A DNA stretch of 1,764 nucleotides from sequence record OR845696.1; one strand, 5' to 3'. Both the position numbers and the translations under genes were made by a program. This DNA is from Escherichia phage ECO95 1-6-1. Below the pieces are notes generated by a model that did no database searches, was not told the DNA's origin, and was given only the letters and a program-made list of their open reading frames with translations. Position 1 is the stretch's first letter. Every line of letters starts with the position of its first letter. Of the stretch, positions 1-291 are shown piece by piece.

Positions 1-203
1 GCGATAAACCGGAAGAGTGGGATGAGCCGCTGATGGCGGCTATGACCGGGCTGGTAGCCGAAGATCTGGCGGAAATGGATCTGCTGGACTATCAGGCATT
101 GCAGAAACGATTTCAGGCCATGCTTAGCATGGCTACAGAACCCACAGCAGTTGTGGCAGGCAATGGCGCTGCTGGCGAGGTGGTTTCACTTTCCGCCCAG
201 TGA
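1..203 (+). CDS. Phage tail assembly chaperone, gpE-like (5'-partial; C-terminal 66 codons in window)
   Basis: Frame 3 is the only frame open from the window start to TGA at 201-203. Translation: DKPEEWDEPLMAAMTGLVAEDLAEMDLLDYQALQKRFQAMLSMATEPTAVVAGNGAAGEVVSLSAQ*. It is acidic, helical-looking and protein-like. Its position directly upstream of an E'-like ORF and a tape measure gene matches the chaperone slot of P2-like and lambda-like tail operons. Family assignment is from recalled resemblance, not a search. Confidence 0.75.
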   Translation, partial: DKPEEWDEPLMAAMTGLVAEDLAEMDLLDYQALQKRFQAMLSMATEPTAVVAGNGAAGEVVSLSAQ

Positions 204-291
204 AATTGACGCGCTGTCGGTTGACGATTTTACCTGCTGGCTGGACGAAGCCAGCGCGCAAATTAAACACGAATACGACTCGCAGGCTTAA
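163..291 (+). CDS. GpE-family phage tail protein (E'-like ORF, probably expressed as a frameshift extension of the upstream chaperone)
   Basis: Frame 1, ATG 163-165 to TAA 289-291: MALLARWFHFPPSEIDALSVDDFTCWLDEASAQIKHEYDSQA*. The WFHxPPSE motif is what I recall for short GpE-family ORFs in P2-like prophages. It overlaps the last 41 nt of the frame-3 chaperone gene. Upstream of about 160 frame 1 reads as W/C/R-rich junk, so a frame transition lies near 160-185. The only Shine-Dalgarno-like element is AGG at 158-160, too close to the ATG, so independent initiation is doubtful. Confidence 0.65.
   Translation: MALLARWFHFPPSEIDALSVDDFTCWLDEASAQIKHEYDSQA

Follow-up and report, generated by a model that had tools for sequence, protein, structure and literature searches.

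A conserved +1 frame relation and a proposed CGA_UUU_C shift site in the E/E′ tail-assembly chaperone genes of BcepMu-type phages and prophages

The window, which is the whole 1,764-nucleotide stretch of record OR845696.1 (Escherichia phage ECO95 1-6-1) analysed here, carries the 3′ two-thirds of an E-like tail-assembly chaperone gene, an overlapping E′ reading frame and the 5′ part of a tail tape measure gene (Table 1). The frame-3 product present in the window comprises the C-terminal 66 residues of E, a gene of 105 codons in a chromosomal locus closely similar to the window (L001), and it matches the Pfam family PF10109 (Phage_TAC_7, "E, or 41 or 14") with 81 bits. Frame 1 is open from nucleotide 58 to its TAA stop and contains ...LLARWFHFPPSEIDAL...; the Pfam cut-off for its PF06528 match is 23 bits. 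The E and E′ frames overlap at 58-203, with E′ in the +1 (or −2) frame relative to E. Scans of the window against Rfam, and for promoters and terminators, returned no matches.

Table 1. Features of the window (positions in nucleotides)
Feature	Positions	Strand	Basis and remarks
E-like tail assembly chaperone gene, 3′ two-thirds	3..203	+	Window frame 3, TGA stop 201-203; translation and PF10109 match
Proposed +1 frameshift motif CGA_TTT_C	108..114	+	CGA 108-110 (rare Arg), Phe TTT 111-113, C 114
E′ part, +1-frame extension F-RPCLAWLQNPQQLWQAMALLARWFHFPPSEIDALSVDDFTCWLDEASAQIKHEYDSQA	112..291	+	Window frame 1, TAA stop 289-291; translation
8-bp hairpin GGCCATGC-TTA-GCATGGCT	116..134	+	Perfect stem, −12.6 kcal/mol; starts 3 nt after the TTT codon
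Frame-2 open stretch, the frame entered by a −1 slip	128..436 (end approximate)	+	Non-coding
PF06528 (Phage P2 GpE = E′ domain)	163..273	+	Pfam, 28.1 and 26.3 bits; whole model, FHFPPSE motif included
Tail tape measure gene, 5′ part	388..1764	+	Frame 1, TTG start 388; PF10145 PhageMin_Tail match; corresponds to the annotated tape measure CDS of L001; continues beyond the window end

These assignments largely bear out a sequence-only reading of the same DNA, which had placed a chaperone in frame 3 and an ORF with the FHFPPSE motif in frame 1, with the stops listed above. Both the ORF translations and the Pfam matches agree with it, and the +1 or −2 relation that it had proposed follows from these two frames. 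It had also dismissed frame 2 as junk, and indeed the frame-2 product has no Pfam match and its variation pattern is not of the coding type, its third positions being the least variable columns. The X_XXY_YYZ heptamer that it had failed to find in 128-200 does not occur in the E frame anywhere in 1-203. However, the overlap that it had given as 128-200 corresponds to the open stretch of frame 2 and was thus taken from the wrong frame.

The window is 100% identical to a deposited fragment of Salmonella phage S.Kent 1-2-1 and 97% identical to a region of the S. Infantis chromosome adjoining lysC (L001). Gene order in that region (equivalents of STM4204-4219) is Mor activator, lysis genes, sheath, tube, E (5886-6203), tape measure (6385-8751), gpU, X, D and V, then gtrAB, which places E between the tube and tape measure genes. 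The nearest phages are of the Bcepmuvirus type, namely PhiKM, KP12, BcepMu, phiE255 and Pseudomonas Komp_PAO1_1. The window is best explained as part of a Salmonella prophage remnant with a contractile tail of the BcepMu type, whose E/E′ genes form a tail-assembly chaperone pair and are homologues of P2 gpE and gpE+E′. The L001 remnant is tail-only, running from Mor and the lysis genes through the sheath to baseplate V and ending at the gtrA/gtrB O-antigen glucosylation genes beside lysC. Genes for baseplate J/W/I and for fibres are absent from the stretch seen, so that a complete tail or tailocin is unlikely. This Salmonella element is a truncated contractile-tail cluster, and the CGA_TTT_C site may consequently no longer be under selection in Salmonella. 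A megablast search of the window against E. coli genomes returned no matches; when a PhiKM-type relative was used as query instead of the window, the PhiKM-type locus turned up in 637 of the 5426 complete E. coli genomes (~12%).

The frame relation between E and E′ is widely conserved. E′ lies in the +1 frame of E in 7/7 phage loci from Escherichia, Klebsiella, Ralstonia, Burkholderia and Pseudomonas. Locus scans were started from closer subsets of the seven divergent fusions, and when one genome of each species was scanned with two peptide patterns that do not depend on frame, 59 loci were recovered; the frame relation of each locus was established by separate tblastn searches with the E and E′ parts. 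The +1 geometry was observed in 64 of 69 homologous loci (Enterobacterales, Burkholderia, Pseudomonas, Ralstonia and others) and in 113 of 114 loci from an independent IMG/VR scan, which amounts to ~177/183 loci from independent genomes, phage isolates and metagenomes, although these loci are phylogenetically related and their counts are not independent trials. The recurrence of this geometry, which is retained at 35-100% protein identity and in many genera, is far beyond chance. The alignment with related E/E′ loci that the sequence-only reading had called for reveals conservation of both the +1 frame relation and the local TTT_C sequence among BcepMu-type relatives. That reading had left a choice between a non-standard recoding site and an indel; the recoding site stands, albeit farther upstream than supposed, and the indel does not survive the locus counts.

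The exceptions fall into distinct groups. Three Pasteurellaceae loci (L012, L070 and L071) have −1 geometry on G_GGA_AAG, which is the slippery heptamer of phage lambda G/GT. In three others a locus-specific loss of one base has brought E and E′ into frame: in L017 the missing nucleotide lies 16 nt upstream of TTT_C, and L019 and L105 share a G5-to-G4 deletion inside E′. In-frame fusions created by single-base deletion are likewise seen in proteins P0001 and P0002, and some of the deletions lie near the equivalent of window ~141-147. These natural fusions may represent decayed prophages, sequencing errors or viable constitutive fusions.

Farther afield, −1 geometry on T_TTT_TTG is found in P2 (GGT TTT TTG), Burkholderia phage Mana and Bordetella PBb002, and the P2 site is in keeping with the −1 shift that the sequence-only reading had stated for E+E′ of that phage. 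As judged by sequence comparison, the +1 geometry is characteristic of the BcepMu-type branch of the chaperone family. The sole +1-geometry relative without TTT_C is a Gallionellaceae metagenome-assembled genome (L069, ~795-835), whose overlap reads CGG GGG CTT, which suggests that the slip mechanism was switched there while the frame geometry remained unchanged. The E/E′ protein family as a whole displays three or four different slip solutions. In addition, PhiKM-type loci (L002/L032, ~1690-1702) carry a G5 run directly before the E stop (GCC GGG GGA GAT TGA). It is this run that has become shorter in L019 and L105, and it could permit a second, minor +1/−2 slip into the E′ frame downstream of LLARWF.

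The position at which the frame changes can be bracketed by comparing the limits of the two open frames in 138 non-identical loci. At the extremes, the +1 frame does not open until 3 codons before a conserved Phe codon and frame 0 has closed 6 codons after it; one locus (L164) exhibits both limits together, which leaves a 10-codon overlap of the two open frames. Frame 0 also ends early in Pseudomonas phage Bise (9 codons after Phe) and in L054-60 (14 codons after it). Within the bracket, TTTC (111-114) is the only run with an entropy of 0 in an alignment of 60 sequences. Counts of 60/61 and 91/91 for TTT_C among non-identical loci leave L069 as the single exception, and TTT_C is retained between lineages whose E proteins are merely 35-50% identical. 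Even high-GC loci keep TTT at this site, although their other Phe codons are mostly TTC (TTT:TTC ratios of 1:23 in L010, 5:23 in L009, 6:30 in L011, 5:22 in L005 and 1:15 in L066). The codon that follows encodes Q, H, L or R, and its first base is always C. Where Arg precedes the Phe codon, it is encoded by CGA in 102 of 103 loci, versus 4.7% CGA among the Arg codons elsewhere in the same genes.

The pattern of variation points to the same place. At window 21-110, mean column entropies by frame-0 codon position are 0.77/0.58/1.17, with the third position of frame 0 the most variable, whereas at 201-276 they are 1.33/0.79/0.59, with the third position of the +1 frame the most variable. The phase of variation switches between 114 and 129, and the third positions of the +1 frame peak from ~129 onward. 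A +1-frame Trp at 130-132 is almost invariant, and the L-W-x-A block at 151-162 is conserved. E′ has no conserved start codon of its own: in at least 8 loci the +1 frame contains neither ATG nor GTG nor TTG from the Phe codon to LLARWF, and where start codons do precede LLARWF their positions vary and most have no Shine-Dalgarno sequence (the L009 row of the start-codon table is unreliable). These comparative observations are best explained if the frame transition is located at window 111-114. Farther downstream, GGC GAG GTG GTT (window 174-186 and homologues) is nearly invariant and contains the Shine-Dalgarno-like GAGGTGG, and in nearly all cases the rare codon AGG encodes the Arg of LLARWF in the +1 frame. 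The near-invariance of both this block and the AGG may be explained by dual coding with frame-0 G-E-V-V.

We propose, with a probability of roughly 0.7, that a 134-aa E+E′ protein is made by programmed frameshifting, in which tRNA-Phe slips +1 on CGA_UUU_C, from UUU to UUC. The majority of ribosomes would read E in frame 3 to its stop, and a minority would shift +1 on this motif. [quoted passage not shown] The predicted product consists of E(1-76) followed by E′ (RPCLAW...DSQA), with the junction ...LQKRF/RPCLAW..., and its predicted tryptic junction peptide is FRPCLAWLQNPQQLWQAMALLAR, the Arg-Pro bond being uncut. We infer that it is the ribosome, and not RNA polymerase, that shifts, and that it does so in the forward direction; slippage during transcription was rejected, the T run being too short at 3 bases. 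Other slip candidates, namely CCC_A (141-144), CUU_U (189-192), GUU_U (183-186), AAA_C (105-108) and the PhiKM-clade G5 run, were discarded as unconserved or beyond the bracket, and re-pairing of tRNA-Phe from UUU to UUC is the sole re-pairing possible inside it.

Such a slip is plausible in light of what is known about shift-prone codons in bacteria. Schwartz and Curran are said to have found, in 1997, that UUU-pyrimidine sites are prone to +1 shifting in E. coli. UUU is also among the best replacements for CUU at the RF2 site, and when P-site codons were compared in a cell-free E. coli assay, those of the form XXX, UUU included, ranked among the most shift-prone (bioRxiv 10.1101/2025.10.02.679949). 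Nevertheless, two features count against the proposal: the zero-frame A-site codon in the window is CAG, which is common and not "hungry," and the first codon of the +1 frame is the rare AGG. Moreover, direct reading of the window sequence finds no Shine-Dalgarno-like element upstream of CGA_TTT_C. With the usual bacterial +1 stimulators absent, any stimulation by CGA is a matter of conjecture. The codon CGA is decoded by I:A wobble, and this rare, inosine-decoded codon immediately 5′ of the slip codon might promote the shift through weak E-site pairing or a distorted P site. According to the discussion in PMC3498833, weak E-site pairing is linked with higher +1 shifting at RF2.

A stable RNA structure downstream of the slip codon might also be considered as a stimulator. 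However, the hairpin listed in Table 1 begins too near the P site to act as a classical stimulator. It is limited to the Salmonella-type clade, in which G-U changes preserve its pairing in L013-L016 (relatives from Phytobacter, Superficieibacter and Dryocola), and it is absent from other clades, so that it is probably not a general stimulator. A family-wide downstream element was sought with RNAalifold in 19 diverse loci and rejected, since the analysis returned only a 5-bp element 55 nt downstream, without covariation and at −1.24 kcal/mol. The single-sequence fold has a z of −1.03, and 36-nt downstream windows, with a mean z of −0.40, contain no family-wide structure.

Several other accounts of the E/E′ arrangement need to be weighed against P-site slippage on UUU_C. 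An unlikely one retains the site and the product and differs only in how the frame is lost: CGA, paired by I:A wobble, would occupy the P site while Phe-tRNA binds UUC out of frame in the A site, as in Ty3-like occlusion. The almost absolute conservation of CGA 5′ of TTT speaks for it, as does its fit to a known effect in yeast, where inosine-decoded CGA perturbs the neighbouring site. Since the product is identical, comparative data do not separate it from a P-site slip. Yet the Burkholderia/Pseudomonas clade keeps TTT_C behind TCC, GCC, ACC or GTG; the geometry can thus do without CGA, in keeping with a P-site slip on UUU_C whose context varies. It could also be argued in principle that the invariance of TTT_C reflects dual coding, with Phe in both frames and the shift 1-3 codons upstream, but no slip-prone codon is conserved 1-3 codons upstream. 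Independent translation of an unfused E′ from an internal start, TTG 151 or ATG 163, is very unlikely. The window does have start codons at both positions, and a separate ORF is called in some annotations, such as that of BcepMu gp42. The sequence-only reading had allowed for initiation at ATG 163; a start there is unconserved, the comparison of start codons above applies to this account generally, and it leaves both the invariance of TTT_C and the preference for CGA unexplained.

We also consider it highly improbable that the frame changes at ~160-185, where the sequence-only reading had placed the transition, for example by a +1 slip on GUU_U (183-186) right after the Shine-Dalgarno-like GAGGUGG. 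It is true that GGCGAGGTGGTT is strongly conserved at the nucleotide level and that in the KP12-type clade the E stop (TAG) lies directly 3′ of GTT, an arrangement like that of RF2. But in L011, L054-60 and L162-167 frame 0 ends 6-14 codons after Phe, well upstream of this block, so that a shift at its equivalent is impossible there. The comparative data place the transition about 50-70 nt upstream, and amino-acid conservation of the +1 frame is already evident before the block, at Trp 130-132 and L-W-x-A. In addition, tRNA-Val on UUU or UUC would mispair at the first position, and the LLARWF motif of E′ accounts for the conservation of the block. A Mu-type −2 ribosomal frameshift would lead into the same frame, and the CGG GGG CTT of the distant relative L069 resembles the CGG_GGG_CGA used by Mu, but we give this account just as little weight. 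The longest run of identical bases in window 58-203 is 3, and re-pairing two bases back is impossible for UUU (to GAU) as well as for CAG (to UUC). Finally, the rare single-base-deletion variants described above, and the fact that the Salmonella element is a remnant, might be taken to mean that a sequencing or assembly indel, or a pseudogene, conceals a P2-like −1 geometry. This is hardly conceivable, as it is refuted by the +1 geometry of nearly all loci, and purifying selection is seen in both the E and the E′ frames while frame 2 is junk.

The +1 shift is annotated in none of the public records that we checked. For example, in the BcepMu record (L009, NC_005882, 1198-1959) gp42 (1454-1657) is labelled as the analogue of "lambda G" and gp43 (1573-1959) as the extension reached from it by frameshifting. 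However, gp42 is the E′ homologue and lies in the +1 frame of gp41, and gp43, a GC-rich ORF, lies in a spacer of ~275 nt that is absent from the Salmonella, Escherichia and Pseudomonas relatives. Hence, the pairing of gp42 with gp43 is probably wrong, and gp41 and gp42 probably constitute the pair. In the one E. coli genome examined (SK1144; L189, 1201-1700), RefSeq annotates E and leaves the E′ ORF unannotated. Similarly, the protein database lists E as a 105-aa "phage tail assembly protein" with no +1 join, and the sole fusions in it are singleton indel variants. Because the E′ ORF and the fusion are missing or misassigned in public records, annotation rules and frameshift predictors could be corrected.

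Tail chaperone pairs in different phages use −1, −2 or +1 shifts, and with all three already established for such pairs the general phenomenon is not new. In the literature searched, however, we found no description of a UUU_C or CGA_UUU_C +1 site in E/E′ chaperones of the P2/BcepMu type. Few utilized +1 sites are known in bacteria and phages, and most of them combine a stop or rare codon with a Shine-Dalgarno-like element. CGA_UUU_C, bracketed to 10 codons, would be a new bacterial +1 signal, one that is easy to test, and would connect prokaryotic translation with the UUU_C class of eukaryotic viruses. In addition, homologous chaperone genes would be seen to reach the same two-protein output by a backward (P2) or a forward (BcepMu-type) slip of tRNA-Phe. 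More tentatively, at somewhat less than even odds in our judgement, CGA_UUU_C may be a dedicated bacterial +1 heptanucleotide that is kept in a large BcepMu-type family of tails and prophages. In this case CGA itself would stimulate the shift, by weak E-site pairing or distortion of the P site, and would take the place of a hungry A-site codon or a Shine-Dalgarno element. If true, CGA_UUU_C would be a prokaryotic counterpart of both the PA-X class of UUU_C sites and the CGA-induced frameshifting of yeast.

Comparison with known systems clarifies which elements of the arrangement are shared. The −2 shift of phage Mu has in common with the window a Pfam chaperone family name, a second ORF in the +1/−2 frame and a biological role. 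However, Mu relies on a G5 run for −2 re-pairing (CGGGGGC), and a run of at least 5 bases is absent from window 58-203; within the E/E′ family only L069 has one. The E. coli prfB gene (RF2, AGGGGG-UAU-CUU_UGA) likewise shifts +1 by a P-site slip onto an overlapping NUU_U/C codon, and its E-site codon is reported to influence the shift, as discussed in PMC3498833. In the window, by contrast, the sequence upstream is GCATTGCAGAAACGA and the A site holds CAG, and E/E′ has none of the autoregulatory logic of RF2.

The influenza PA-X protein offers a closer parallel, as it is produced by a +1 shift on UCC_UUU_CGU through P-site slippage at an efficiency of ~1% (PMC3498833). The 5′ codon modulates this efficiency, and a class of UUU_C sites with restricted flanking codons has been predicted (PMC3498833). 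Related UUU_CGN sites belong to RNA viruses of eukaryotes. In both systems an in-frame UUU with C as its next base marks the 5′ end of a +1 ORF and is conserved at synonymous positions, and we propose for the window the same re-pairing of tRNA-Phe to UUC. BcepMu itself reads TCC TTT CGC, and its clade has NCC_TTT_CGN or GTG_TTT_CGG. Nevertheless, the PA-X site operates in eukaryotic and not in bacterial translation, and the window site is a candidate identified by sequence comparison. The A-site CGN of PA-X is found in the Burkholderia/Pseudomonas and Arsenophonus-type clades, whereas the window and most Enterobacterales have CAG or CAA there, with CGA as the 5′ codon.

Most informative are the tail chaperones of lambda and P2. 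Gene position, homology of both parts and an overlapping second ORF without a start codon align the pair with the lambda G/GT class, the −1 heptamer of that class being absent. P2 gpE and gpE+E′, the equivalents of lambda gpG and gpGT, are products of essential P2 tail genes. Lambda G binds the tape measure protein, as does GT through its G portion; GT uses its T portion to bind the major tail protein. By analogy, and with functions assigned from homology, E and E+E′ would bind the tape measure protein through their shared N-terminal domain, and the E′ domain would recruit tail tube subunits. A low shift efficiency would fit the lambda G:GT ratio of ~30:1. With P2 the window shares homologous PF10109 and PF06528 proteins, the gene site between tube and tape measure, and a second ORF without its own start. 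The conceptual 134-aa fusion aligns colinearly with gpE+E′ across the junction (BLASTP, E 8e-6), and the F-H-x-P-P-S-E motif follows after a linker of 23 aa in the window and 25 aa in P2. The P2 shift site and the one proposed here are both Phe codons at the C-terminal edge of PF10109 and lie within ~3 residues of each other. P2, however, shifts −1 on the tandem heptamer T_TTT_TTG, while the window would shift +1 on the single-codon tetranucleotide UUU_C with a conserved rare CGA on its 5′ side. Hence, the P2 and BcepMu-type branches appear to slip the same tRNA-Phe at essentially the same place, but in opposite directions.
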